Notes: generated by a model from the letters alone, not told the origin. 32,000 nt of DNA from Prochlorococcus sp. MIT 0801 (GCF_000757865.1 NZ_CP007754.1:990001-1022000), one strand, 5' to 3'. Positions 6,000-25,640 are shown, counted from the stretch's first letter. Numbers and translations are program-made.

Positions 6000-6632
6000 T
6001 TATCTAGTTAAAGCCAAAGCCCAATTAGGAGAGGAAGAACTTACACCCAAAATATTCTTAGTCAAGGAGGAATTACATTTAGCGACAATCCCATTGGTAG
6101 GAAGATTAGAAAACAATTCATTATTGATCCATTGAGAATGCCATCTTTTAACCTGCATAGGATCATCAGTTCTTAGAGTTATAGGGACATCGAATCCCCA
6201 TTTTTGAAGTTGGGTCAAATCTGACAATTCATCACTATTTGAGCAAAAGATATGGAATGCTTTAAATAAAAGAGAGGTATTCTTATCAATTTGCGAGAAT
6301 GAGTTCGAAAGTAATTTCTCTAATGAAATCTTGGAATTAGCCGAAGGTGAGTATAAAACGCCCTCCAGCTCAACTTCAACTTTTAGAGAGTCATCAATAC
6401 TCAAAGGGATAGCATTGACATTCCTAATGTTTTCAATCATCACACGATCAACACGGGAATAGGCATCTACTAATTGGCCATATTTATATCGAAGGCCTAC
6501 TGCGAAGCCTACGATTTTGGGCTGCACAACCATGGTTGATCCCTCTGGTAACTTTGCCCACCAGCTAGAGAAACAATCCTTATCAAGTCCAAGTAATCTC
6601 ATATATATATCAATAGGAAGATGTAGAGCCAA
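6000..6632 (-). CDS. standalone NAD-dependent DNA ligase (LigA) adenylation-domain-like protein, degenerate motifs
   Basis: VVQPKIVGFAVGLRYKYGQLV aligns to LigA motif I (KxDG, here K-I-V-G). ELEGVLY aligns to EVRGEVF and NGIVAK to DGVVIK. KWGFDVP and PNWALAL also match LigA. No OB, Zn, HhH or BRCT regions. TTG at 6632; alternative ATG at 6602. Confidence 0.7.
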   Translation of the reverse strand: MALHLPIDIYMRLLGLDKDCFSSWWAKLPEGSTMVVQPKIVGFAVGLRYKYGQLVDAYSRVDRVMIENIRNVNAIPLSIDDSLKVEVELEGVLYSPSANSKISLEKLLSNSFSQIDKNTSLLFKAFHIFCSNSDELSDLTQLQKWGFDVPITLRTDDPMQVKRWHSQWINNELFSNLPTNGIVAKCNSSLTKNILGVSSSSPNWALALTR

Positions 6633-8540: not shown

Positions 8541-8666
8541 TTAAACGAAACCTGGAATAATCCAGCCTGTGAATCCGTAATTAACTACAGCTGCAAGAAG
8601 GCCCATCATCGCAAGACGACCATTCATTATTTCAGCTGTTTTCCAGTAGTTAGTTTCTTTGTTCAT
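8541..8666 (-). CDS. hli: high-light-inducible protein (HLIP), 41 aa
   Basis: MNKETNYWKTAEIMNGRLAMMGLLAAVVNYGFTGWIIPGFV carries the E-x2-NGR-x-AM-x-G chlorophyll-binding motif. The ORF-track N-terminal extension is read-through of the upstream gene. Confidence 0.9.
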   Translation of the reverse strand: MNKETNYWKTAEIMNGRLAMMGLLAAVVNYGFTGWIIPGFV

Positions 8667-8815
8667 TACACGAAACCTGGAATGATTTGTCCTGTTGTTG
8701 CGTAAGCACCAACTAAAGCAATGCATCCAAACAATGCTGCATAGCCATTAAGTCTTTCTGCAGTTACCTTTTCAGGATCAATGTTTCTACCGCTGCTGTT
8801 GTTTTGAGTAGTCAT
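8666..8815 (-). CDS. hli: high-light-inducible protein, 49 aa
   Basis: MTTQNNSSGRNIDPEKVTAERLNGYAALFGCIALVGAYATTGQIIPGFV. Its stop overlaps the next start as TAATG. Confidence 0.88.
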   Translation of the reverse strand: MTTQNNSSGRNIDPEKVTAERLNGYAALFGCIALVGAYATTGQIIPGFV

Positions 8816-8961
8816 TAGACAACACCTGGAATGATTTGACCTGTTGTTAGATATGCACCGATGAGTGCCCAGCATCCAACAAATGCTGCGTAGCCATTGA
8901 GTCTTTCAGCAATTACTTTGCCTTCTTCTACTCTTGGAGTTTCAGTAGTTTGGTTTTTCAT
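8815..8961 (-). CDS. hli: high-light-inducible protein, 48 aa
   Basis: Hand-called: MKNQTTETPRVEEGKVIAERLNGYAAFVGCWALIGAYLTTGQIIPGVV. TAATG overlaps at both ends. Confidence 0.85.
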   Translation of the reverse strand: MKNQTTETPRVEEGKVIAERLNGYAAFVGCWALIGAYLTTGQIIPGVV

Positions 8962-9080
8962 TAAACAACACCTGGGATAAGTTGACCGGTTGTTAGGTAG
9001 ATACCTGTTAGAAGAACGAATGCCATCATGGCTGGTCTGCCGATGCTTCTTTCTAGGATTGTTTTGTTAGATGGTTGCAT
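8961..9080 (-). CDS. hli: HLIP-like protein, 39 aa, degenerate motif
   Basis: Hand-called: MQPSNKTILERSIGRPAMMAFVLLTGIYLTTGQLIPGVV (E-x3-GR-x-AM). Confidence 0.7.
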   Translation of the reverse strand: MQPSNKTILERSIGRPAMMAFVLLTGIYLTTGQLIPGVV

Positions 9081-9100
9081 TGTTATTAGTAGTTATTGGT

Positions 9101-9208
9101 TTAGAAAATTCCAGGAATGATTTGACCTGTTGTTGCGTATGCACCGAAGGCAGCAACGAAGCCAAGCATTGCTGCCCAACCATTAAACTTTTCTGCTTCT
9201 GGAGTCAT
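9101..9208 (-). CDS. hli: high-light-inducible protein, 35 aa (first gene of the operon)
   Basis: Hand-called: MTPEAEKFNGWAAMLGFVAAFGAYATTGQIIPGIF. Confidence 0.85.
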   Translation of the reverse strand: MTPEAEKFNGWAAMLGFVAAFGAYATTGQIIPGIF

Positions 9209-9226
9209 GATGAAATCCGAGTTGTG

Positions 9227-10811: not shown

Positions 10812-11498
10812 ATGAGAGAAGAGAATGATGTATTAAATCATCTTATAAGGAATCTTGAGAGAATATCTCCAGAAGATTCTATCTTTAATTACAAATCTGG
10901 AAGCAAAGCCTTCGTATCATTAGGACAAGGAAATATTAGTGAATGGCTGGAGACATTTCTTCCAAATACAAGAATAATTGTAGAACCAAAAATCATTGGA
11001 TCAATCATTGGCATTCAATATATAAATGGAGAATTAAACAAGGTCATAAATAAAAATGTTCAAGACATTACAGAAAGCGTAAGTTCTCTAAAAATTATTC
11101 CTAAAAGCCTACCGATTAAAAACAGACTAGAAATACAAGGTATTCTTTACAACGATAAAAATTTATCAAGAAGAAAAAATGAACCTGAATTTATAGAAAT
11201 ACAAAATTGGCAATCACAGTCTAATAGACTTAAATTCTGCGCTTTTCAAATATATCAATGCAATATTAATCATTTTCAAACACTTCAAGAGTTAAAGCAT
11301 CTAAATTTTGAAATTCCTCAAACTCATTTTACAAACTTCATTTCAGATATCGAAATCTATCTTCAATGTTGGAGAGAGGGTAAGTTATTTACAAGCTATC
11401 CAACAAATGGACTAGTATTAAAAATCAATTCAAGAAAATTGCAGAAGTATCTTGGAGAAAATAACCTATCAATACCTTGCGCATACGCCATAAATTAA
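10812..11498 (+). CDS. second standalone LigA adenylation-domain-like protein, degenerate motifs
   Basis: VEPKIIGSIIGIQYINGEL (K-I-I-G), EIQGILY and NGLVLK. Paralogous to 6000..6632. Confidence 0.7.
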   Translation: MREENDVLNHLIRNLERISPEDSIFNYKSGSKAFVSLGQGNISEWLETFLPNTRIIVEPKIIGSIIGIQYINGELNKVINKNVQDITESVSSLKIIPKSLPIKNRLEIQGILYNDKNLSRRKNEPEFIEIQNWQSQSNRLKFCAFQIYQCNINHFQTLQELKHLNFEIPQTHFTNFISDIEIYLQCWREGKLFTSYPTNGLVLKINSRKLQKYLGENNLSIPCAYAIN

Positions 11499-13841: not shown

Positions 13842-13982
13842 TTAATGATCTGTTGAAGCCAAATAACTATCACCCAATAAGGTACCAGTACCAAGATCAA
13901 AAACATTATCAAGGTTAGATAGCAACTCTTTTAATTCTTCTCCGCTGATTCTTTTAATTTCTTGGTAAGTTTCTTTTGACAT
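13842..13982 (-). CDS. hypothetical 46-aa acidic peptide
   Basis: Hand-called: MSKETYQEIKRISGEELKELLSNLDNVFDLGTGTLLGDSYLASTDH. Confidence 0.3.
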   Translation of the reverse strand: MSKETYQEIKRISGEELKELLSNLDNVFDLGTGTLLGDSYLASTDH

Positions 13983-14169
13983 AGAAATAATAAAATCAGA
14001 TGCAAATTTAACCACTCCTAATCAGCTTCAGAGACCGTAAAGACCGATAGGGGTAATTGCCTTTTGGAATACTTCAATAAAAAGAAATTATGACAATAAT
14101 TAGTTTGCTTACATTAAGAATTCTAATCAATACCACAAAGAAAATAACGATACCTATGAGTAATTGATG

Positions 14170-14855
14170 TTAAGTAATTATTCCTACACGGCTGATAGTG
14201 GTTTGTTCTTATATTTTTTGAACTTCTCAGGACAACCTTCTTTTTATACTGAGCTTTAGAAGGTTGTTTCTTTGAATAAAAAACGTCAGTGCTCCTCCCC
14301 AGAAGCCAATCAACCGATGACCAGTGCAATTGATTGCCTGACGTACACATATCCTAGATTTTCCTTTTCATCAATAGTTCTGTAGGACCGTACGTCTTAG
14401 GCAGGGAAACCGTAGAAAGAATAAACCTCTTTTAATTAGACATTTAAAAAGGGCCCGAGGGGGCCCTTTTCCTTTACCGATTCTTTGGAAGCTTCTGGAT
14501 ATTGGTGGCCTGGGGCCAAGTGTCTAGTAGAAAGGCTTTTTTACTCCGTTAGGGCACCTAAACGATGCAGAGGAGGTTCGACTGAATTGACGCACCTAAA
14601 TCATTGATCCTTGTCGCATCAGACGAATAGCCCACTTATTCTTTGAGAATGTTGGAGCAGGAACCAGAATTCAGTTCGCTTCTCTTAAATACTCAGGTGG
14701 AGTGTCGACCATCAATGGTGCCTCTGAGCTCAACAAACGTATCTTTGCTCTATTCGCACCTCAACGCAATCAGCCTTAATGCCCATTGCATTTCCACTAC
14801 ACCTGATCAAAAATAGTAAGTTTGGGGTCTAGCTAAGATCTAATTAATAAATCAA
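14170..14855. repeat. 686-bp direct repeat, copy A (non-coding, GC-enriched)
   Basis: Block-by-block comparison with 24756..25441 (offset 10586) found one mismatch (14845 T vs 25431 C). Identity ends sharply on both sides. Confidence 0.95.
14446..14475. terminator. GC-clamp hairpin with A-run and T-run flanks (bidirectional terminator-like) inside repeat copy A
   Basis: AAAAA-GGGCCC-GAGG-GGGCCC-TTTTCCTTT. The minus strand reads GGGCCC-CCTC-GGGCCC-TTTTTAAAT. Confidence 0.6.
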
Positions 14856-14856
14856 T

Positions 14857-15201
14857 ATGTCGAGAGAACAAACAAGCAAACAAGATCAAATAAGCAATTT
14901 CGGTGAAATAGCTAAAGGATGTAGAACTGATCATCAAAAGATTGAATTTTTCGATTCAGCTAAGGAAGCATTTTTCACAGATTCAATTGAATCTACAAGC
15001 TCGGTTAATGAAGATATCCCTAAAGACTTAGACGACGGGTTTTACGTATACGCAAATATGAAAAAACTTAGCGAAACGGAGCTTGAAGAGTTGAAAAGTC
15101 TGCCATGGCAAGAATACCCAGAAAACTTTAAGATATTTTTATTCGATTTTTGCATCTTAAATGGTGATGCATATTCAAAATACTTCCCCAATTCAAAGTA
15201 G
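14857..15201 (+). CDS. hypothetical acidic protein
   Basis: ORF track; the ATG lies 1 nt after the end of repeat copy A. Confidence 0.55.
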   Translation: MSREQTSKQDQISNFGEIAKGCRTDHQKIEFFDSAKEAFFTDSIESTSSVNEDIPKDLDDGFYVYANMKKLSETELEELKSLPWQEYPENFKIFLFDFCILNGDAYSKYFPNSK

Positions 15202-15206
15202 TTTTA

Positions 15207-15353
15207 GTGATTTTCAGAGGTGTCAGCAAAGACAATCCTGAAAAAGCGATCGTTGTAGTTCAAGCTTATGAGGGTGTCTTAGAAAAACATATACAAGAGA
15301 ACATTGAAATATTTGAAAAAAATGGTGCAGTCCATGAGTACGGCAGAACCTAG
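15207..15353 (+). CDS. hypothetical 48-aa protein (GTG start)
   Basis: Hand-called: VIFRGVSKDNPEKAIVVVQAYEGVLEKHIQENIEIFEKNGAVHEYGRT. Confidence 0.25.
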   Translation: MIFRGVSKDNPEKAIVVVQAYEGVLEKHIQENIEIFEKNGAVHEYGRT

Positions 15354-15433
15354 TCTCTGGTCTTGAGGATCCAAATTGCTTAGGTATAAATAAAGAATCA
15401 ACTCAAAAGATTAGTCTCAATTAAATCTGAACA

Positions 15434-15703
15434 ATGATTAGAAATCTGTTTTTCTTAATTCTCGGAGCATTTAGCGGTCTTTGGTTTATATGGCCTCAAA
15501 TCATTACGACCAAAGGTTGGGAATGCACAAAAGATGTGATTGCATCTTCTAATGAAGATTTAACAGATATTGAATCATTAGTTGAATCCTTGCCAAACAG
15601 AATCAAATTAGGCTTGGCTGTTTCCCCAAAAACATTGCTAAAGAGAGAGAACCTTACTCGTATCGAGAAGCTCAGAATTGTTGGAGATGCTTGCTTTAGA
15701 TAA
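15434..15703 (+). CDS. hypothetical protein with N-terminal signal/anchor
   Basis: ORF track; LFFLILGAFSGLWFIW hydrophobic N-terminus. Confidence 0.5.
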   Translation: MIRNLFFLILGAFSGLWFIWPQIITTKGWECTKDVIASSNEDLTDIESLVESLPNRIKLGLAVSPKTLLKRENLTRIEKLRIVGDACFR

Positions 15704-15757
15704 TTTAAAACCACAAACGAAAATTATCATTATAAATATCAACAAAAAGTTGGCGTC

Positions 15758-16261
15758 TTAACTTATCAAAGCAATTGCTTCTTTTAATTCGTTCGCATGA
15801 TTGATCTCATCTTGAGCAATTTCACGTATCCTCTGATCGTTTGGATTAACTGTTAGATACTTTGCATAAGTTTCATACGCATGCTCTTCAATTTTTATAT
15901 TGATATCGTATGCATTTGATGGAGAGAGTAAGTAATAAAAAACCATTACCCAGTAATAGAAGAGCACTAAATGCCTTGCAAGAAATCGATCAACCCAATA
16001 TCTATTGCCGCTTCGTGATTCCATCTCTTCTAAATGCTCCGTCTCATTGATTGCTTGGTAAAAATGAGCCTTCATGAGCTTGTTGCTTAAAGGAGTCTTT
16101 AGGCCAAGCGACTCTTGTAAATGCAAAACTGATAAGAATGCAAAATAAGGTGCTCTAGCAATTACCTCAAGAACCCAAAAACGTTGAATCGGTCTACCTT
16201 CGTAGATCCGATCAAGAATGTTTACACTGAAATTTAAAACAAATGAATTAATACCTTTCAT
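15758..16261 (-). CDS. ptox: plastoquinol terminal oxidase (PTOX, alternative-oxidase-like di-iron protein)
   Basis: Di-iron carboxylate motifs: LEVIARAP, NETEHLEEM, EEHAYETY, DEINHANEL. Size 167 aa. Confidence 0.9.
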   Translation of the reverse strand: MKGINSFVLNFSVNILDRIYEGRPIQRFWVLEVIARAPYFAFLSVLHLQESLGLKTPLSNKLMKAHFYQAINETEHLEEMESRSGNRYWVDRFLARHLVLFYYWVMVFYYLLSPSNAYDINIKIEEHAYETYAKYLTVNPNDQRIREIAQDEINHANELKEAIALIS

Positions 16262-16379
16262 AATTCCTTAGCCCACTATTTAAGTATAAATACTTAACGC
16301 AACGATTTGAGTTGTAACTTATTTATTTAACTATCGATAGCAACTGGAGCAGAATGTGGAAGTAGGCCGAAGATTAAAT

Positions 16380-16556
16380 CTATCTTGCTCGGACAGGTTT
16401 GTAAGCAGGAATCATCTTTCCTCCACCGAAATCGTCATCATCGTCTGGAAGCGCTCTTGAGATTAGTTCTACGAGGACTAGAGCAGCCATAGGATAGAAA
16501 CACCATAAAACAGCTTTCCAGATGGGAAATGAGTCAACTAGCTGAAGCTCAGACAT
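16380..16556 (-). CDS. 58-aa TM protein with a poly-Asp-GGG-M tail (family member 1)
   Basis: Hand-called: MSELQLVDSFPIWKAVLWCFYPMAALVLVELISRALPDDDDDFGGGKMIPAYKPVRAR. Confidence 0.5.
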   Translation of the reverse strand: MSELQLVDSFPIWKAVLWCFYPMAALVLVELISRALPDDDDDFGGGKMIPAYKPVRAR

Positions 16557-16738
16557 GTATCAGAAAATTGTTTGAACAAACCTAACTGATCTAAAAATAT
16601 TTAGTGTTACGGTTAGCACGAAGTGAATGTTTATCTAATCGATCCTTCTGTAAAAAAATTACTTCAATCCGTCTAAGTTTTCCACAGCTTCAGAGTCACT
16701 AAATAACTCCAAGATCTAAATAAAAAGCAATTCCAATA

Positions 16739-16978
16739 AAAAAGACCCTAGGTATGGTGTCCTACGGGCCTGGGTGATGGGGATCTTATTTTTAACTGTT
16801 TTTCAAGCAAATTGCAACCCCTACCATATCTGGTGTTAGAAAGATTAAAAAAACAGAAAAAAAGACCCATATCTGGAATTATTAGCTTGCGTAATATGTA
16901 CACAGCGAGTAGTATTTTCGAATTACTGGGTGATGGGGATCTCTCAGTATCTACTCCCTCAAATTTGAGGGTTTTTTT
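16739..16978 (+). ncRNA. candidate small RNA locus (two units sharing AGACCC and a 17-mer)
   Basis: CTGGGTGATGGGGATCT occurs at 16770..16786 and 16926..16942, each preceded by A-run+AGACCC. Unit 1 ends in TTATTTTT and unit 2 in a strong terminator. The only ORF here reads through that terminator. Confidence 0.3.
16956..16978 (+). terminator. rho-independent terminator
   Basis: CCCTCAAA/TTTGAGGG stem followed by TTTTTTT. Confidence 0.65.
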
Positions 16979-17072
16979 ATGCCATGAATTTCTGCAGATA
17001 ATTTCTAAGATGGATTAAGGCAAAATTAGTGAAAAACTGCTCTGATCCTTATTTTTTTCCAAAATCGAGAAG

Positions 17073-17285
17073 ATGGAACAAGTAACTGATGCAATTGGTA
17101 ATCCCACAGCACTCTTAGTAGAGAGAATTTTTTGGTTAGGGTTAGGTGCATTTTTAGGACTGGCAATAATTACTTCTTTACTAAGAGGATTAAAAGAAAG
17201 TAAAAACAAAACGACACCAATTTCACCTGATCAATTAGAAAATCTTGCAAAAAAAGCGATCCAACAAAACAGTGATAGCAATTGA
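17073..17285 (+). CDS. hypothetical single-TM protein
   Basis: ORF track. Preferred over the antisense ORF 17015..17209 because of its clean TM helix plus charged tail. Confidence 0.5.
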   Translation: MEQVTDAIGNPTALLVERIFWLGLGAFLGLAIITSLLRGLKESKNKTTPISPDQLENLAKKAIQQNSDSN

Positions 17286-17575
17286 TATTGGTTATCAGAT
17301 ATTTTTATAGCCACAAACAAATTTACTTATGGTCGTTGGGGCGAGAACCGTACAATCAGCTACCACTGATTAGATGATGAGCATATATGCTTAATACATA
17401 TTCACAAAAACAATGAAATTAGTTCCTTACATATTCATGGCTGTTGCTATCTTCTCAGAAGTTTCAACAATTGCTACGACTCCTATTATCTAATTGAATC
17501 TCATTAATTGAGTATTCAGACCTAACGCGTTCGGGTGAATACCGACGTTAGATTGTATATAACTGATTTGTATTC

Positions 17576-17836
17576 ATGCTCAAAAAGATATTTAGGGCTG
17601 CTAGTTTTTTAGCTTTGTCTGTTTTTTTAACTTCGACAACTATTTTTTCAGGAATTAATCCTGCAGCAGCCGCTCAAATGGGTTCTGATATGAACGAAGA
17701 TAACTCTATGGGTATTGTGATCGAAGAGTCTAGTGATGCCTTGGATGGTTCGAAAACTAGTGCTGCCCCAGATCTTGGAGATGATCAAGCATTTCCTTTT
17801 ATTCCAGGTTTTGGTAAAAATTCCGGTAAAGACTGA
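17576..17836 (+). CDS. secreted acidic protein with a C-terminal FPF-x-PG motif (family member 1)
   Basis: Signal peptide ending AAAAQ, a Met/Asp/Glu/Ser-rich middle, then DLGDDQAFPFIPGFGKNSGKD. Confidence 0.6.
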   Translation: MLKKIFRAASFLALSVFLTSTTIFSGINPAAAAQMGSDMNEDNSMGIVIEESSDALDGSKTSAAPDLGDDQAFPFIPGFGKNSGKD

Positions 17837-18233
17837 TTATCTTTTTGTTGAAAAGTATTGATTGATAATAAATTACTAATTTTTTCAAAAGCTAGAAAAA
17901 ATCCACAGTTATAAGAGCTAATTAGCTAAACCATTTTCATGGAAAAATGGGAATCAAAAATAATCATATTTGTTATGTTTGCAGTCCTTGCAATTGGGTC
18001 AATCGCGCCATTGATCAGGATGATCAGTGATCGTATTTCTTAAGATTGAATTTGATTGGACAGGCTGAGATCATTGGAGTAATTATTTCTAACATGATTA
18101 CTTTTGGCATTTTTAGCTGATTAATTTTTATTTTGCAAAAAATGAAAAAAATGGATTAAATGCTCAAATGGAACAAAAAAAAATCTAGAGAAAGATCTCT
18201 AGATTTATATGAAGATTGATTTGTTAAAGCTAT

Positions 18234-18530
18234 TTAAAATATGCCAGGAATAATTTGTCCAGTAGTGATATAAGCGCCTAGTAAAGCAATCATTCCGATC
18301 ATTGCCCAACGGCCATTGGTCTTTTCCGCTTCTTCAGGATAGCTGGAATAGTTTTCAACTAATTGAGTTTGTACTTGGGTAGCAAACATGTTTTGCTTGC
18401 CATATTCAGTAATGATCTGGTTAGAAGCAGAACTGTAAGCAGGGATTCCTGTTGGATCAACAGATTGTCCTTCTGATTGATTATCAGTTGGATCTATTGA
18501 TTGATCAGAAACTGGGTTACTAGAAGTCAT
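18234..18530 (-). CDS. hli: high-light-inducible protein with a long N-terminal extension, 98 aa
   Basis: From ATG at 18530. The C-terminus EEAEKTNGRWAMIGMIALLGAYITTGQIIPGIF is a canonical HLIP. The N-terminus contains DQSIDPTDNQSEGQSVDPTG. Confidence 0.85.
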   Translation of the reverse strand: MTSSNPVSDQSIDPTDNQSEGQSVDPTGIPAYSSASNQIITEYGKQNMFATQVQTQLVENYSSYPEEAEKTNGRWAMIGMIALLGAYITTGQIIPGIF

Positions 18531-18538
18531 ATAAGAAC

Positions 18539-18646
18539 CTAAAAAATGCCTGGAATAATTTGACCAGTAGTTGCATAAGCACCGAAAGCAGCAATAAAGC
18601 CGATCATTGCCATCCAACCATTAAACTTTTCTGCTTCTGGAGTCAC
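18539..18646 (-). CDS. hli: high-light-inducible protein, 35 aa, GTG start
   Basis: (GTG)TPEAEKFNGWMAMIGFIAAFGAYATTGQIIPGIF. No in-frame ATG would keep the E-x2-NG motif. Paralog of 9101..9208. Confidence 0.75.
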   Translation of the reverse strand: MTPEAEKFNGWMAMIGFIAAFGAYATTGQIIPGIF

Positions 18647-18672
18647 GAGATTAAACTCAAATAATGCGCATG

Positions 18673-18701
18673 AATGTAAAGGAAAAGTAAAGGAATGTAA
18701 A
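18673..18701 (-). promoter_or_regulatory. HLR1-like triple direct repeat upstream of the hli pair
   Basis: The minus strand reads TTTACATT-CC-TTTACTTT-TCC-TTTACATT, ending 26 nt before the GTG at 18646. Confidence 0.55.
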
Positions 18702-18811
18702 GGGGTCACCCGTACACAGCAAAAGTTATCAGGGGTATTAGGTGAAGCAATATTTTTTATCCACGTTCTAAATAACAATTCCACTAACTTTGTTGAACTT
18801 AATTCAAATAG

Positions 18812-18988
18812 ATGGATTTAATACCAGGTGTAGTTCTTTTCTTTGGAGCCATTGGAACTGTGGCTTTACTTGGTTGGGATACTTTCCAAAATCGTAAGCC
18901 AATAACTAAAGCTGAAATGCAGCAGTCTCGTGGAACTAGAGCTGCTAAGCCACAACAAAAGAGAAGATGGTTATTTAACAGAGAATAA
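18812..18988 (+). CDS. 58-aa single-TM protein with a basic tail
   Basis: Hand-called: MDLIPGVVLFFGAIGTVALLGWDTFQNRKPITKAEMQQSRGTRAAKPQQKRRWLFNRE. The ORF-track minus ORF 18799..19005 is its antisense shadow. Confidence 0.45.
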   Translation: MDLIPGVVLFFGAIGTVALLGWDTFQNRKPITKAEMQQSRGTRAAKPQQKRRWLFNRE

Positions 18989-18990
18989 TT

Positions 18991-19167
18991 ATGGGTGAAA
19001 TTCAAACATACGCTTCAAACTCAGGAGATTTTAATTTCCTTTTCGTTCTAATCATTGTTGGGACTTATCTTCTTTATGAGGTTGGAAAGGCAATAATGGA
19101 CAACAACGATGATGATGACATGGATGGAGGAATGACGATGCGTGTAGCAGATGGAGCACAGGCCTGA
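18991..19167 (+). CDS. 58-aa TM protein with a poly-Asp-GG-M tail (family member 2)
   Basis: Hand-called: MGEIQTYASNSGDFNFLFVLIIVGTYLLYEVGKAIMDNNDDDDMDGGMTMRVADGAQA. Its ATG lies 2 nt after the preceding stop. Confidence 0.5.
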   Translation: MGEIQTYASNSGDFNFLFVLIIVGTYLLYEVGKAIMDNNDDDDMDGGMTMRVADGAQA

Positions 19168-19638
19168 ATTGACTACCAAAATAATATGTACTTAATGACT
19201 ACATAAACATGTCGTCTCTAAAAAGGTTTAAGGGTGAATTGAATATATAATTAGTCATCTATTTAATTAAAAATTTTGAGCGAAGAAAATATCAAAAGAA
19301 AAATAGATGCTTTATTAAAAGAACTTCAGGAGAAAACAGGAGTTTCGGATGAGGAGATGGACGAATTTAAAAAAATTATGGAACTAGCAGATTTTTCACA
19401 AGACCAAGAATAATTTAGGTATAAGTCGGGATGAATGAAGGTTTAGCGAGATGCGAGTTTTGACCAAATAAGGAGTACCAACACGTTAAGCAATGCATAT
19501 CCAACAGCAATTTGAAGTTGGTAAAAATAACCAACAATCGAAGAGGATCCCAAAATGATCAAACTAGTAATAAAAATATCTCTTGAAAAATTCACCTAAA
19601 AATATCAAGCACTATAAATATTCAGATTGAAAATGAAA

Positions 19639-19797
19639 TCATGAAAGTCTTATTTGATTTTCAATCGAATAAGCATTGCTTGTGCAGGCCTCATCACCTG
19701 TAACTTGAGAAACAGCAATAACCAGAAGACTTAGAGAACCAACCGCTAGAGAAATTGTTCTAATAGCACTTGCTTTCTTAGAGATTTTCTTGCTCAT
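19639..19797 (-). CDS. hypothetical single-TM protein
   Basis: ORF track 19639..19839. The internal ATG at 19797 gives MSKKISKKASAIRTISLAVGSLSLLVIAV. Confidence 0.4.
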   Translation of the reverse strand: MSKKISKKASAIRTISLAVGSLSLLVIAVSQVTGDEACTSNAYSIENQIRLS

Positions 19798-19946
19798 ATC
19801 AAAAAAAATTGATGTAATAAGAATATGATTACTATCCAAGCATAAAGAGTATCCATTGATACCTGCTAGAAATAATTACCTAAAAATTATTAGAACAATT
19901 CTGAATAGAGCTAAATCAATTGAAAACCAGATTTAAATTGATTGCT

Positions 19947-20276
19947 TTATTTACAAGCTTGCGATGGTTGTTGCGAACTTTCTTTTAACAGTTCAATCCA
20001 ATCTTGCAAAGAATTTAATGAGTCAATATTCAATTGGTAATAAACCCATCTACCAGTTTGCCTATCGGTAATCAAACCTGCATCTTTTAAAACTTTTAAA
20101 TGAAAAGATATTTTCGATTGCGCCAATCCAATTTCATTAATCAAATCACAAACACATCGTTCTCCTCCTGAAAGAGACTCAATGATTTGCAATCGCAATG
20201 GATCAGATAAAGCTTTTAGCAATTTCCTGGCCACTGCATTTTCAAGAACTACTTCGCTCTTTGTCGCTGTGGCCAT
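19947..20276 (-). CDS. arsR: ArsR/SmtB-family metalloregulator
   Basis: Winged-helix core LRLQIIESLSGGERCVCDLINEIGLAQSKISFHLKVLKDAGLI, with the CVC metalloid-binding motif. ATG at 20276. Confidence 0.9.
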   Translation of the reverse strand: MATATKSEVVLENAVARKLLKALSDPLRLQIIESLSGGERCVCDLINEIGLAQSKISFHLKVLKDAGLITDRQTGRWVYYQLNIDSLNSLQDWIELLKESSQQPSQACK

Positions 20277-20347
20277 CACAGAAGAAAAAATATAATCACA
20301 TGATAAAACAAACCGCAGAAAAGGCTTGCATCGATAAACCTCTATAC

Positions 20348-20365
20348 ATCAATATAAATTGATAT
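20348..20365. promoter_or_regulatory. palindromic operator-like motif in the arsR/gap divergent intergenic region
   Basis: ATCAAT-ATAA-ATTGAT-AT, a 6-4-6 inverted repeat. A further ATTGAT lies at 20384..20389 inside TATATTGATT. Confidence 0.5.
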
Positions 20366-20415
20366 GAGGAATCTTATCCTTATATTGATTCACTCCTCTA
20401 ACTCAATTACAGGTT

Positions 20416-21441
20416 ATGCGAATCGGTATTAATGGTTTCGGTCGAATAGGACGACTTGTTCTAAGAGCGCTCTGGGGTAGAGAAAATATCGAGATTACAC
20501 ATATCAACGATCCATTGGGTGATGCAAAGGGAGCTGCGCATTTACTTGAATTTGATTCAGTACATGGTCGTTGGAACAAAGCAATAAGCAACGACCAAAA
20601 CAACCTGAGTATTGAAGGTCACCCGATATCTTTTGCAAAGGAAAGTGATTTCACAAAAGTTCCATGGGATAAGACAGGTATAGAGCTAATTCTCGAATGT
20701 TCAGGAAAATTCAAAACCCCTCAAACATTAAATCCTTACTTCGATACTCTTGGGATGAAAAGAGTTGTCGTTGCATGTCCAGTAAAAGGAGAAATCCAGG
20801 GAGAGGATGCTCTAAATATCGTCTACGGTATTAATCATGATTTATATGAGCCCAATAAACATCGCTTAGTAACAGCTGCATCCTGCACGACTAATTGCTT
20901 GGCTCCCGTTGTGAAAGTTGTTAATCAAGCTTTTGGTATCAAGCATGGAAGCATCACAACACACCATGACCTAACAAATACACAGGTAATCGTTGATTCA
21001 TTTAAATCAGATTTAAGAAGAGCAAGGAGCGGATCACAAAGCTTAATTCCAACAACAACAGGATCAGCAAAAGCGATAGGGATGATATTCCCTGAATTAC
21101 AAGGTAAATTAAATGGTCATGCAGTTCGAGTTCCTCTCCTCAATGGATCTTTAACTGATGCTGTATTTGAATTAGAAAAAGAGGTCACGCAAGAAGAAGT
21201 CAATCATGTGTTCAAAGAAGCTTCAGAAGGAGAACTAAAAGGAATACTTGGTTACGAAGAAAAACCACTTGTATCAATCGATTATGTCAATGACTCGAGA
21301 AGTTCAATTATTGATGCGCCCTCAACCATGGTGATCAACAAAACTCAACTGAAAGTCTATATTTGGTATGACAATGAATGGGGGTATAGCTGTCGAATGG
21401 CTGATCTCGTATCACATGTAATAAAGCTAGAAAAAGAATAA
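20416..21441 (+). CDS. gap: glyceraldehyde-3-phosphate dehydrogenase-like protein (ars-associated GAPDH)
   Basis: [12 protein letters not shown]-binding N-terminus and the catalytic [10 protein letters not shown] motif. 341 aa, followed 10 nt later by arsJ. Confidence 0.92.
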
Positions 21442-21451
21442 AAATAAAAAC

Positions 21452-22714
21452 ATGCGATTAACGGCATTGCAACAATATGGAATCGTAACGACCAACTATT
21501 GGGCATTCACACTGACAGATGGTGCTCTAAGAATGCTAGTGATTTTTCACTTTCATAGCCTTGGATATACAACATTAGAAATTGCATTCTTATTCCTTTT
21601 TTATGAGTTCTTTGGCGTCATCACTAATCTCTATGGAGGTTGGATAGGAGCAAGATATGGATTACGTCTAACACTGTGGGTAGGAACTCTTTTACAAATC
21701 GGCGCCCTATTGATGTTGATACCCGTTTCAAGTGGTTGGTCGAAACTTTTGAGTGTCATTTATGTCATGGTTGCTCAAGCGATTAGTGGCATAGCAAAAG
21801 ATCTCAATAAGATGAGTGCTAAAAGTGCCATCAAAACTGTCGTTCCAGGCTCATCAGAAGAAGATGGTGGAAATAATCAATTATTTAAATGGGTAGCCAT
21901 CTTAACTGGTTCAAAAAATGCACTCAAAGGAGTTGGCTTCTTTCTTGGTGGACTTTTGCTTACAAGTTTTGGATTTAATAAAGCAGTTGAATTAATGGCT
22001 ATCGGTTTAGGTCTGTCATTTCTAATGACATTAATTTTGCCTGGAGATATTGGAAAGATGAAAAACAAACCAATCTTTAAAGACTTATTTTCTAAATCTC
22101 AAGGGATCAATGTCCTCTCTTTTGCACGCTTTTTTCTCTTTGGGGCAAGAGACGTATGGTTCGTCGTTGCACTACCTGTTTTTCTTGAAACGTATCTAAA
22201 TTGGAATTTTTCTGAGATTGGAGCTTTTCTAGGATTGTGGGTTATTGGTTATGGTTTTATTCAAGCGTTTGCGCCGTCTTTAAGAAATTTATGGGGAAAT
22301 AAAACAAGCCCAGGAGTTTCTTCTGTTCAATTCTGGAGCGCTGCGTTAACTGCAATTCCAGCGCTAATAGCAATAGCACTATGGCGACAAAGCAATCCAG
22401 AAACAGCAATTACAGCTGGATTGATATTATTTGGGTTCATATTTGCAATGAACTCATCAATACATTCATATATGGTTCTTGCTTATACGGACAAGGAAAA
22501 CGTGAGTCTAAACGTCGGCTTCTATTACATGGCAAATGCGGCAGGGAGACTGATTGGTACTCTCCTATCAGGAGTTTTATTCATGATTGGAGCTAATGCC
22601 TCTATAGGAATGCAACTATGTTTATGGTGCTCAAGCCTATTTGTATTTATCTCATTGTTGACTAGTTTACGACTACCTCCAGTATCAAATACAAAAGCTA
22701 TAAAAAATTCCTAA
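21452..22714 (+). CDS. arsJ: ArsJ-like MFS permease (organoarsenical efflux)
   Basis: 420 aa, about 11-12 hydrophobic segments. The position directly after an ars-linked GAPDH and divergent from arsR fits the ArsJ arrangement. Confidence 0.8.
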   Translation: MRLTALQQYGIVTTNYWAFTLTDGALRMLVIFHFHSLGYTTLEIAFLFLFYEFFGVITNLYGGWIGARYGLRLTLWVGTLLQIGALLMLIPVSSGWSKLLSVIYVMVAQAISGIAKDLNKMSAKSAIKTVVPGSSEEDGGNNQLFKWVAILTGSKNALKGVGFFLGGLLLTSFGFNKAVELMAIGLGLSFLMTLILPGDIGKMKNKPIFKDLFSKSQGINVLSFARFFLFGARDVWFVVALPVFLETYLNWNFSEIGAFLGLWVIGYGFIQAFAPSLRNLWGNKTSPGVSSVQFWSAALTAIPALIAIALWRQSNPETAITAGLILFGFIFAMNSSIHSYMVLAYTDKENVSLNVGFYYMANAAGRLIGTLLSGVLFMIGANASIGMQLCLWCSSLFVFISLLTSLRLPPVSNTKAIKNS

Positions 22715-22755
22715 GAGCGTCAATAAAAAAAATTAAATATCAAGGGAAAGAAGGA

Positions 22756-22935
22756 CTACTGAACCTCTGATTCTCTGTCATATTCAAGTCCAACTTCATT
22801 CATCCATGCTGCTTTCGTTTTACAGTTTTTACCATGCTCGGCTAGATGTAATCCCTCAATCGAAATAAATAAAACTAGTAGTGAAACTGGAACCCACCAA
22901 ATGGGTGATCCAACTATTTCCTTCCAATTATTCAT
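22756..22935 (-). CDS. hypothetical 59-aa single-TM protein
   Basis: Hand-called: MNNWKEIVGSPIWWVPVSLLVLFISIEGLHLAEHGKNCKTKAAWMNEVGLEYDRESEVQ. Confidence 0.35.
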   Translation of the reverse strand: MNNWKEIVGSPIWWVPVSLLVLFISIEGLHLAEHGKNCKTKAAWMNEVGLEYDRESEVQ

Positions 22936-23007
22936 TGAATCTTTTTTTTCATATTAAAGATTTTTTTCAGCTTAAGTTAGGAAGTGACTGGCTAGCAAAA
23001 AAGAAAT

Positions 23008-23037
23008 TAAAAAGGAGGCTATTGCCTCCTTTTTAAT
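23008..23037. terminator. bidirectional rho-independent terminator after pstS
   Basis: AAAAAGGAGGC-TATT-GCCTCCTTTTTAA. The stem is 23013..23019 / 23024..23030. Confidence 0.65.
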
Positions 23038-23052
23038 TTATAAGGAATAAAT

Positions 23053-24024
23053 TCACTTACCAATACGCTTTACAGCAGCGCGAGACTTGGAAAGAATATC
23101 ACCTTTTAGAGGAACAAAGCCAAGAGAAGGAGCCTTAGCCTGGGCTTTATCACTAAGTAGGTAGTTAAGTGAATCTCTAATGGCATCAGTGTTTCTACCA
23201 TTACCAGTTTCGTAAGCAAGAATCCATGTAAGGGTTGCGATTGGGTATGCACCCTTGGCCTTAGGGTTAGGGTTATTACCGGCTAGATTTTTATCTAGTT
23301 GTATTCCATTAAGAGCAATAGCACCAGCCTCAGTAGTTGGCTGTAAAAACTCTCCTGATAAATTTTGGAGAGCGGCTGCTTTGATTTCACCTCTAATATA
23401 TGACTGGTTTACATAACCAATTGCACCAGGAGTGTTACGAATAACGCCAGCAACACCAGCATTACCTTTACCACCAACACCAGCAGGCCAGGCGACAGAT
23501 TTACCTGTTCCTAGAGTCCATGTCTTAGAGAAAGCCTGCATGGAATTTGTAAAAGCCTTCGTAGTGCCTGAACCATCAGAACGATGAGCCCAAGTTAGTT
23601 TTCCTTCAGGGCAACCAACCTCTTTCCAGTTTGAAATTTTACCCATAGCAACACGAACAGCTTGCTCTTGAGTAAGTTTAAGATCGCAATCGTAGTTATA
23701 ACCAAAAGCAATAGTGCCACCAACCATTGGGATTTGAACTAATCCCCGCGTAACTTTTGCAATATCTGTTGCTTTCATCGGATCATCAGACGCACCGAAA
23801 TTAACGGTTTCATCAATGAAAGCTTTACGGCCAGAACCTGAACCAACAGCTTGATAGTTAACACGAGGTCCACGCTCTTTAGCTAAGTCAGAGAACCATC
23901 GAGTGTAGATTTTAGCGGGAAAAGAGGCTCCAGCTCCGCTGAGTCGAGCACCCGCAAAGGCACTTCCACCTGAGCCAAGAATAATTAAAGAGGAGAGGAC
24001 AAGACTCTTCTTAGCAAAGCTCAT
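23053..24024 (-). CDS. pstS: phosphate ABC transporter periplasmic phosphate-binding protein PstS
   Basis: GAGASFPAKIY, AVGSGSG and SDGSGTT motifs. I chose the ATG at 24024 (MSFAKKSLVLSSLIILGSGGSAFA signal peptide). The ORF stays open to 24078. Confidence 0.92.
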   Translation of the reverse strand: MSFAKKSLVLSSLIILGSGGSAFAGARLSGAGASFPAKIYTRWFSDLAKERGPRVNYQAVGSGSGRKAFIDETVNFGASDDPMKATDIAKVTRGLVQIPMVGGTIAFGYNYDCDLKLTQEQAVRVAMGKISNWKEVGCPEGKLTWAHRSDGSGTTKAFTNSMQAFSKTWTLGTGKSVAWPAGVGGKGNAGVAGVIRNTPGAIGYVNQSYIRGEIKAAALQNLSGEFLQPTTEAGAIALNGIQLDKNLAGNNPNPKAKGAYPIATLTWILAYETGNGRNTDAIRDSLNYLLSDKAQAKAPSLGFVPLKGDILSKSRAAVKRIGK

Positions 24025-24080
24025 CAAAGGTCTGCGACGTAAAAGCAATGAAAGCATAGGACGTGAAGGCTCTGACATTG

Positions 24081-24116
24081 ATCAATATTTATTGATATAA
24101 TCAATATAGCTTGATA
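24081..24116. promoter_or_regulatory. array of four alternating ATCAAT/ATTGAT half-sites upstream of pstS
   Basis: ATCAAT-ATTT-ATTGAT-ATA-ATCAAT-ATAGC-TTGAT(A). Half-site starts are spaced 10, 9 and 10 bp apart. The first 18 nt match 20348..20365 at 16 of 18 positions. Confidence 0.5.
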
Positions 24117-24497
24117 CAGGGCTTACGGCAAAAAAACTAATTCAAAATAAACATATCTGTTTGATGGAGCGAAGCGGTATATTTATGAGCAATATTAAGG
24201 CTGATGCTTGGATGAAAACCAATCATTAGATCAATCAAGCATTTAATAAGAAGTTGAAAAACAAAGTAAAATATCTTCTAATAATTCTAGTCTTAATGAT
24301 CGGCACATCTATATCTATTAGCCAATACAAAAACACATATCCAGATCCTAGTGAGAGAAAAGATTTATCTGTTAAAGGAATCTTTCTAGATTAAAAATGT
24401 TATGTTTACAAAAATATAAAACATAAATAAGCTTTAAGTGTATAAATTTAGACTAAAATAAATAAAGAGTGAAGGCTTGAAGAAAAGAGGAAACTAA

Positions 24498-24728
24498 ATG
24501 AGATGGCCACCGAATGCAGCTTGGACCTCAGCCGTAAAAAGAGAAGGTTATCGACATTTTGAAGTTAAAAGCTATGGAGGCAAAAAAGATGAACGGTGGG
24601 TAGAACTATTTCCAGTTAACAACAACGAAATTCTTATAAGAGTTCCATGGTCGGAATTAAAAACATATTCAAAGTGGACGAGTGGATGGCTTCAGTTGCC
24701 AAAAGATGACGATTGCGATGGCAACTAA
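24498..24728 (+). CDS. conserved hypothetical protein
   Basis: ORF track; ATG start. It ends 27 nt before repeat copy B. Confidence 0.6.
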   Translation: MRWPPNAAWTSAVKREGYRHFEVKSYGGKKDERWVELFPVNNNEILIRVPWSELKTYSKWTSGWLQLPKDDDCDGN

Positions 24729-24755
24729 TCTTTAGAGAAAATAAAAAACAGATAT

Positions 24756-25441
24756 TTAAGTAATTATTCCTACACGGCTGATAGTGGTTTGTTCTTATAT
24801 TTTTTGAACTTCTCAGGACAACCTTCTTTTTATACTGAGCTTTAGAAGGTTGTTTCTTTGAATAAAAAACGTCAGTGCTCCTCCCCAGAAGCCAATCAAC
24901 CGATGACCAGTGCAATTGATTGCCTGACGTACACATATCCTAGATTTTCCTTTTCATCAATAGTTCTGTAGGACCGTACGTCTTAGGCAGGGAAACCGTA
25001 GAAAGAATAAACCTCTTTTAATTAGACATTTAAAAAGGGCCCGAGGGGGCCCTTTTCCTTTACCGATTCTTTGGAAGCTTCTGGATATTGGTGGCCTGGG
25101 GCCAAGTGTCTAGTAGAAAGGCTTTTTTACTCCGTTAGGGCACCTAAACGATGCAGAGGAGGTTCGACTGAATTGACGCACCTAAATCATTGATCCTTGT
25201 CGCATCAGACGAATAGCCCACTTATTCTTTGAGAATGTTGGAGCAGGAACCAGAATTCAGTTCGCTTCTCTTAAATACTCAGGTGGAGTGTCGACCATCA
25301 ATGGTGCCTCTGAGCTCAACAAACGTATCTTTGCTCTATTCGCACCTCAACGCAATCAGCCTTAATGCCCATTGCATTTCCACTACACCTGATCAAAAAT
25401 AGTAAGTTTGGGGTCTAGCTAAGATCTAATCAATAAATCAA
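24756..25441. repeat. 686-bp direct repeat, copy B
   Basis: Same sequence as 14170..14855 (685/686). The GC-clamp hairpin lies at 25037..25052. Confidence 0.95.
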
Positions 25442-25445
25442 AAAC

Positions 25446-25640
25446 ATGAATCAGTCTCCAGAGAAAGAGAAGGGAATGAGCTTTATTAAAAAAGCTGGTA
25501 AATGGGCTCCATTAGTTGGAGGAGCATGGATTGTTCTGAATATTGTTGTTCCATTAGCTCTACTTCGTATTCCTGCAGTCCAAAAATACTTAGTAGTACT
25601 TGAAGACAAGCTCCCATTTGATATTCCAGGTATTGGTTAG
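25446..25640 (+). CDS. hypothetical 64-aa membrane protein
   Basis: ORF track; the ATG lies 4 nt after the end of repeat copy B. Confidence 0.55.
   Translation: MNQSPEKEKGMSFIKKAGKWAPLVGGAWIVLNIVVPLALLRIPAVQKYLVVLEDKLPFDIPGIG

Follow-up and report, generated by a model that had tools for sequence, protein, structure and literature searches.

Direct repeats carrying the small-RNA gene yfr103 flank a phosphate and arsenate island of low-light Prochlorococcus and evolve in concert

A 32,000-nucleotide (nt) stretch of the Prochlorococcus sp. MIT 0801 genome (GCF_000757865.1, NZ_CP007754.1:990001-1022000; hereafter, the window) contains two nearly identical 686-bp direct repeats, R1 and R2, that enclose a 9.9-kb block of phosphate, arsenate, and photoprotection genes. 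Here, we propose that the repeats are paralogous modules, each carrying a copy of the small RNA (sRNA) gene yfr103, that they flank a flexible island of the LLI (NATL-like, low-light) clade, that they evolve in concert, and that they occasionally delete the block between them. We put the probability of this reading as a whole at roughly 0.8. Exact-protein matches place the window within a genomic island of the LLI clade, whose genomes measure 1.84-1.94 Mb, with strain NATL2A (CP000095.2) as one relative. An earlier note on this DNA, which viewed the block as mobile cargo between recombining repeats, missed what the repeat itself appears to be: an sRNA gene joined to a conserved non-coding module.

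When compared in register, R1 and R2 match at 685 of 686 positions in direct orientation, exactly at the borders that the earlier note had drawn. The sole mismatch is a t at 14845 versus a c at 25431, and identity drops to background directly beyond both ends. The copies are spaced 10,586 bp apart, start to start, and a repeat search of the window, in which matches were cut at 300 nt, recovered the same pair. Repeats of such length and identity cannot have arisen by chance. The features of the repeats and of their immediate borders are as follows.

14170..14855: repeat copy R1, 686 bp, between the left-flank genes of 46, 50, and 68 amino acids (aa), minus strand, and the first block gene
24756..25441: repeat copy R2, 686 bp, preceded by the DUF2389 gene that closes the block and followed by the right-flank 64-aa gene
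14446..14830, minus strand: predicted yfr103 copy 1; 3' end set by the terminator, 5' end approximate
14819-14814: candidate -10 box TACTAT for yfr103 copy 1, assigned by eye
25032..25416, minus strand: predicted yfr103 copy 2; the NATL2A segment that maps to copy 1 also maps here, at 25067-25320
14446..14470: bidirectional terminator-like hairpin, AAAAA GGGCCC GAGG GGGCCC TTTT, read from the sequence; twin in R2 at 25032-25056
14170..14445: left module with two conserved hairpins, 14232-14267 and 14283-14344; twin at 24756-25031
13842..13982, minus strand: marker gene of the left flank, 46 aa, by which contigs spanning the repeat were retrieved
25446..25640, plus strand: right-flank marker gene, 64 aa, with its start codon 4 nt past the end of R2

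The identity of the repeat's right half emerges from published NATL2A transcripts. Specifically, a metatranscriptome study lists NATL2A 988876-989276 on the minus strand as "yfr103," with 26,040 reads, and labels 962538-962761 and 962780-963244, both on the plus strand, as "antisense of yfr103" (Lott et al. 2020, PMC7368042, Table S2). By BLAST, the 304-nt Yfr103 matches the NATL2A contigs -962894|963147 and -988876|989178 over 227 nt, with 74-75% identity (PMC7368042, Table S5). We mapped these coordinates using the NATL2A locus 957408-977584. The segment 962894-963147 aligns at 98.8% identity to window positions 14481-14734 and 25067-25320, and NATL2A possesses two yfr103 loci roughly 26 kb apart. 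Because the published Yfr103 coordinates map into both copies, R1 and R2 each contain a minus-strand yfr103. The NATL2A coordinates thus establish, indirectly, homology to the MIT9313 reference of 304 nt. The right half of each repeat is, in our annotation, a predicted yfr103 gene on the minus strand that ends at a GC-rich hairpin.

Yfr103 is a multi-copy, extremely abundant non-coding RNA with homologs in NATL1A, NATL2A, SS120, and MIT9313, and it is the most abundant non-coding RNA of MIT9313; in Synechococcus CC9605, seven Yfr103 paralogs of 290-328 nt account for 55% of the strain's mdRNA-Seq reads (Hou et al. 2016, PMC5069720). The element described here shares with published Yfr103 its multiple copies, its non-coding nature, a predicted length of about 300-400 nt, and very strong conservation. 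The yfr103 half is the most conserved part of the repeat: positions ~14473-14830 are conserved like the best-kept neighboring coding genes and far above most of them, and identity of the yfr103 core to the window stays at 96-98% (means of 96.8-97.7%) where the left-flank genes of a lineage have fallen to 70-81%. We rejected coding potential for the repeat. The repeat contains no conserved open reading frame (ORF), and the longest ORF in the right half (14643-14816, 57 aa) shows mostly non-synonymous substitutions and is cut short in many genomes by a TAA stop (ACTACA to ACTTAA).

The predicted gene ends at the hairpin at 14451-14466, which is followed by TTTTT on the minus strand. In the alignment of 30 genomes, the terminator stem is kept and its loop varies. 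A terminator scan flagged nothing; the 14446-14470 hairpin went unflagged because it does not satisfy the scan's T-run rule. A promoter scan gave weak matches only. No Rfam family reached its gathering score in the window, and at E ≤ 10 the repeat gave chance-level matches only; these scans were negative because the Yfr103 family has no Rfam model. An nhmmer profile of the module found exactly two copies in the window, R1 and R2, and no extra copy of yfr103 or of the left module in the window or in any fetched locus. A search of a phage database with the repeat returned no match, nor did a search of IMG/VR viral contigs with a repeat 24-mer.

The remainder of the repeat, the left module, varies between genomes more than the yfr103 half and is nonetheless identical within each genome (30-genome alignment). 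The inner stem of its second hairpin (14283-14344) carries a C-G to T-A double change in three genomes, and the loop of that hairpin, at about 14314-14330, is hypervariable and is deleted in genome AG-410-A05. The NATL2A plus-strand transcript contig 962538-962761, with 1473 reads, maps to window positions 14124-14347, with a twin at 24756-24933. It begins 46 nt outside R1, covers both left-module hairpins, and has no overlap with the yfr103 core. Thus, despite its "antisense of yfr103" label, this contig maps to the left module; the transcript may be a separate small RNA or a 3' untranslated region.

In the window genome, the repeat extends to the start codons of two unrelated genes, the 114-aa gene (14857) and the 64-aa gene (25446), which therefore share their entire upstream region. 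This common region is the presumed yfr103 promoter region on the opposite strand.

The same arrangement recurs throughout the LLI genomes. We use A for the left flank, B for the 114-aa gene that opens the block, C for the DUF2389 gene that closes it, D for the 64-aa right-flank gene, and R for the repeat. Among relatives, R occurs both as A-R-B and as C-R-D, at orthologous positions, and wherever both copies could be read, in 16 LLI genomes, R1 and R2 occupy the same two sites. A scan with the repeat 24-mer, which took one genome per species, gave 34 matches, none outside Prochlorococcus; of the 21 contigs matched, 13 carried two copies. Because the two-copy arrangement recurs in relatives, the repeat is neither an assembly artifact nor a recent insertion. 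We judge from this distribution that the arrangement is old and nearly fixed across the clade.

That the second copy is an artifact of this particular assembly, a risk that attends near-perfect repeats in general, is extremely improbable. The two-copy state recurs in 16 other genomes, which include the complete chromosomes CP138980, CP138919, and CP114782. Two Logan contigs of run SRR12829168, L002 and L003, are 100% identical to the window. L002 spans pstS through the whole R2, including the junction of DUF2389 with R2, and ends 1 base before the R1/R2 mismatch. L003 begins 30 nt before the mismatch in R1, within the last 41 nt of R1, and reaches from the R1 end into the 114-aa gene. One oddity is that L002 is unbroken at the left edge of the repeat, where the path from the left flank should merge.

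Sequence comparison of the copies reveals the hallmark of concerted evolution. Within a genome, R1 and R2 differ at 0-4 nt over ~655 nt (99.4-100% identity, 16 of 16 genomes), whereas between genomes orthologous copies are 84-98% identical, with mean identity 93% and hence a mean difference of 7%. The nearest relative of every copy is its partner in the same genome. Closed genomes agree, with 2 differences in MIT 0916, 1 in MIT 1012, and 3 in CP114782, so the pattern is not an artifact of short-read consensus. The earlier note had proposed that the repeats are substrates for homologous recombination, and the contrast between within-genome and between-genome identity bears this out: the two copies recombine with each other and evolve in concert, a pattern most simply explained by gene conversion.

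Strong purifying selection on yfr103 could, on its own, keep two copies alike without any recombination, and the high conservation of the yfr103 half, at about 97-98% identity to the window in all lineages, is what such selection would produce. As a full account of the identity, however, selection is highly implausible. Nucleotide diversity (pi) is 0.12 in 14281-14445, and the left module has a mean identity to the window of 91%, yet freely varying sites, which include the hairpin loop and the whole left module, still match within each genome. Selection is not the cause because sites that vary between genomes agree within a genome, and, again, each copy resembles its own partner more than its ortholog.

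The limits of the shared stretch provide a further sign of conversion. The left limit is constant in all genomes. The right limit falls into a short class of ~654-660 nt, in nine aligned genomes and NATL2A (662 nt by BLAST), and a long class of 663-690 nt, found in seven genomes with the window among them, in which the stretch reaches the start codon of B. The copies of AG-410-A05 are shorter through internal deletions, yet they extend equally far. Short and long classes are interspersed on the tree of right flanks, as expected from recurrent conversion with differing end points.

The earlier note also predicted an allele from which the block has been deleted. Looking up contigs by the left-flank marker yielded both arrangements, A-R-B and A-R-D, and three assemblies join A, one repeat copy, and D, with the block absent and the flank genes intact, as repeat-mediated deletion would produce:

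L024: single-cell genome AG-402-B19, 82-kb contig, A-R-D
L070: scaffold_697 of ERZ23489683, 6.4 kb, seen in two samples, A-R-D
L071: Tara Oceans contig, ERR1726704, 6.3 kb, A-R-D

Thus, the predicted allele is present, at the level of assemblies, in one single-cell genome and two metagenome contigs, which represent at least two genetic backgrounds. In all three, the 64-aa gene directly follows the single repeat copy. The flanks of L070 and L071 are 96-99% identical to the window and about 2% apart from each other, and in the fetched loci most closely related to these two, the repeat leads into the 114-aa gene (A-R-B). The AG-402-B19 left flank is only 85% identical to the window. The simplest reading of these joins is at least two independent losses by R1 x R2 crossover.

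It is unlikely that these single-copy arrangements show the locus as it was ahead of insertion of the block, or that they are chimeras assembled across a collapsed repeat. In the tree of right flanks AG-402-B19 has a deep branch, short reads underlie all three assemblies, and the repeat is evidently hard to assemble because all 11 of the Joint Genome Institute (JGI) metagenome contigs that contain the left-flank 68-aa protein stop inside it, and so carry no information on junctions. Contigs that do cross the repeat are biased toward single-copy alleles. Weighing on the other side, AG-410-A05 is more divergent than AG-402-B19 and has both copies and the block, making loss the more parsimonious reading. 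Moreover, L070 and L071 fall within a group of two-copy genomes, at 98-99% identity, and three separate projects each recovered the arrangement. L071 has, in addition, a MEGAHIT-style contig name (k127_); contigs of this style would normally stop at a branch.

Several points count against the interpretation that paired yfr103 modules recombine and at times delete the block. The three A-R-D joins are short-read assemblies, and a path across a collapsed repeat could be chimeric. The block of AG-402-B19 may lie on another contig. No C-R-B junction, which would mark a circle or a tandem array, occurred among the first 56 loci, in a sample of a few dozen contigs. The Yfr103 assignment rests, indirectly, on published coordinates plus a published BLAST match, and the transcript ends in the window genome are predicted from sequence. 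Finally, the fold is not clearly better than that of shuffled sequences (z = -2.15 for the minus strand and -1.15 for the plus strand), and an alifold consensus of 29 genomes contains only 2 compensatory pairs in the yfr103 half, where covariation is sparse because the sequence hardly varies.

The earlier note's suggestion that the block could be excised as a circle or amplified in tandem gained no support from this limited contig sample: judged by gene order, contigs matched by the 89-aa block gene likewise contained no C-R-B junction and had only the normal left-flank context. One long-read metagenome contig, davie_1 contig_46038 (ENA ERZ28548068; loci L081 and L082), contains two copies of the left flank plus block start, oppositely oriented and ~13 kb apart, with fragmented gene calls in the second copy. 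This double copy is probably a fold-back assembly artifact.

The block itself was annotated by Pfam and NCBIfam matches, and the domain matches verify the cargo that the earlier note had listed: PTOX, two hli genes, arsR, a GAPDH-like gene, arsJ, pstS, and small genes. The order is 114-aa gene, DUF3764-like gene, 89-aa gene, PTOX, small genes, two hli genes, ArsR, ArsJ-associated GAPDH, ArsJ, PstS, and DUF2389 gene.

14856..24755: block, 9.9 kb between R1 and R2
15758-16261, minus strand: PTOX/AOX
18234-18784, minus strand: two hli-type genes, one with a weak Pfam Chloroa_b-bind match, the other known by motif only
19947-20279, minus strand: ArsR
20416-21441: ArsJ-associated GAPDH (NF033735, 551 bits versus cut-off 450)
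21452-22714: ArsJ (NF033734, 574 bits versus cut-off 400)
23053-24078, minus strand: PstS (TIGR00975, 230 bits versus cut-off 205)
24498-24728: DUF2389 gene

The left part of the block, from the 114-aa gene through PTOX, the hli genes, and the small genes, is common to relatives. The right part differs among them, in keeping with the expectation that cargo varies among strains. The window is of the arsR-gapdh-arsJ-pstS type; NATL2A-type genomes have ptrA-phoB-phoR, a phoA-like gene, pstS, and chrA in this part; two genomes have a phosphonate transporter and other genes there; and two genomes are without the arsR-to-pstS segment. Most cargo variation sits inside the block, not at the repeat borders, and is independent of the repeats. 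Regarding individual loci, upstream of R2 and beside the DUF2389 gene, L007 and L013 carry a phosphonate ABC transporter with MauE, DUF411, and DUF3721 genes, and L009 has phoB and a truncated phoR placed between pstS and the DUF2389 gene.

Two other features of the island deserve mention. The hli paralogs form two clusters, at 8541-9210 and 18234-18784, in which 109-nt stretches are 62-84% identical; the clusters constitute a second set of dispersed repeats in the island, distinct from the 686-bp pair. Two short ORFs, 6000-6632 (minus strand) and 10812-11498 (plus strand), each encode only the adenylation domain of an NAD-dependent DNA ligase. Both are kept in relatives, and they look like truncated ligase-like island genes.

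Could the block be a site-specific mobile element, an integrative or tycheposon-like island whose repeats are attachment sites or a target duplication and whose recombinase is supplied in trans? Direct repeats border the flexible island on both sides, and Prochlorococcus islands are known hosts of integrase-carrying tycheposons, which, like the process proposed here, bring niche-adaptive cargo in or take it out (Hackl et al., bioRxiv 2020.12.28.424599). We nevertheless consider this possibility very improbable. Tycheposons carry an integrase and target tRNA genes, and we found neither at this locus: ARAGORN detected no tRNA or tmRNA, partial tRNAs included, in the window, and no integrase or recombinase Pfam domain occurs in the 30 ORFs scanned of the 35 ORFs of at least 80 aa in the window (the 5 outside the scan include a 100-aa minus-strand ORF in R2, at 24634-24936). 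The earlier note's remark that the window lacks a recombinase stands within that scope, and we rejected an integrase/tRNA island on both counts. Also at odds with a mobile element, the 686-bp repeat contains an sRNA gene, the copies keep their positions even where the flanks of a lineage have diverged by 15-30%, and the right homology limit varies between genomes, unlike a fixed attachment-site core. A composite transposon flanked by insertion sequences (IS) was likewise rejected: the repeat has no conserved ORF, and the window contains no inverted repeats of at least 40 nt. Of the notion of a mobile block, then, recombination between the repeats and alleles without the block are borne out; mobility of the block is not. 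The arrangement is old and nearly fixed.

Paralogous yfr103 modules that exchange sequence have parallels in better-known systems. Gene conversion drives concerted evolution of bacterial multi-copy genes, among them rRNA operons, tuf, and cyanobacterial psbA. As in those families, paralogs within a genome are near-identical while orthologs diverge. The arrangement described here differs in that the unit is an sRNA gene with adjoining non-coding DNA, and in that the copies are direct repeats, 10-26 kb apart, that enclose dispensable cargo. The same recombination can therefore delete the cargo. Segments between long direct repeats, such as those flanked by IS elements or rrn operons, undergo deletion or amplification. 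The yfr103 pair has the same geometry and the same expected products, and the single-copy deletion allele has been seen. It differs from IS-flanked segments because the repeats are not insertion sequences, have no transposase, and have yielded no amplified form.

The cargo matches that of the Prochlorococcus phosphate-acquisition island (Martiny, Coleman and Chisholm 2006), specifically, pstS, arsR, a GAPDH-like gene (gap1), and an MFS transporter (ArsJ), with phoBR and ptrA in relatives; all of these vary among strains. As far as we found in the literature searched, descriptions of the phosphate island and of flexible islands invoke no long flanking direct repeats. Homologous recombination set off by identical repeats is noted in the tycheposon study (Hackl et al., bioRxiv 2020.12.28.424599). 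The Yfr103 papers that we read cover abundance, copy number, and consensus structure, with no mention of LLI copies residing in direct repeats of ~0.66-0.69 kb, bracketing a phosphate island, or evolving in concert. Nor did we find, in the literature searched, the coverage of which is incomplete, an earlier description of repeats around the NATL island.

Taken together, we propose the following model. The repeats are paralogous copies of a non-coding module of ~0.66-0.69 kb, with yfr103 as its right half and a hairpin-bearing left half, positioned at fixed sites on either side of the LLI phosphate/arsenate/PTOX/hli flexible island. Repeated non-reciprocal homologous recombination, that is, gene conversion, presumably of the RecA type, would keep the two copies near-identical within a cell. 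Occasionally, judging from the three assemblies, a reciprocal crossover would remove the block and one yfr103 copy, leaving the left flank, one repeat, and the right flank. Most cells would keep the block owing to its useful genes, and possession of two yfr103 copies may also be favored. Strain-to-strain differences in cargo arise mostly by changes inside the block.

We speculate about a more dynamic role, which we consider doubtful: the yfr103 repeats could serve as built-in homology arms, through which LLI cells lose the island in circular form and regain it or exchange it with one another without a dedicated recombinase. The notion is that a circle, or a linear fragment with one or two repeat copies, would arrive by vesicle or transduction. 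If so, RecA would switch the island on and off like a cassette, in step with the dosage of the sRNA that is most abundant in the cell.

To our knowledge, it is a long-standing question by which route island genes enter and leave Prochlorococcus genomes, given that plasmids, ordinary transposons, and competence genes are absent. Yfr103 is a published, highly expressed, multi-copy sRNA. The arrangement described here ties the gene for the most abundant picocyanobacterial sRNA to the borders of the LLI phosphate island and offers a testable, recombinase-free route of loss. In practical terms, the locus carries a warning, namely that short-read assemblies break at it or misjoin across it. From the standpoint of the organism, recombination between yfr103 modules would provide an integrase-free route to the presence or absence of ~10-26 kb of phosphate, arsenate, and photoprotection genes, and it would link Yfr103 copy number in LLI cells to island content.

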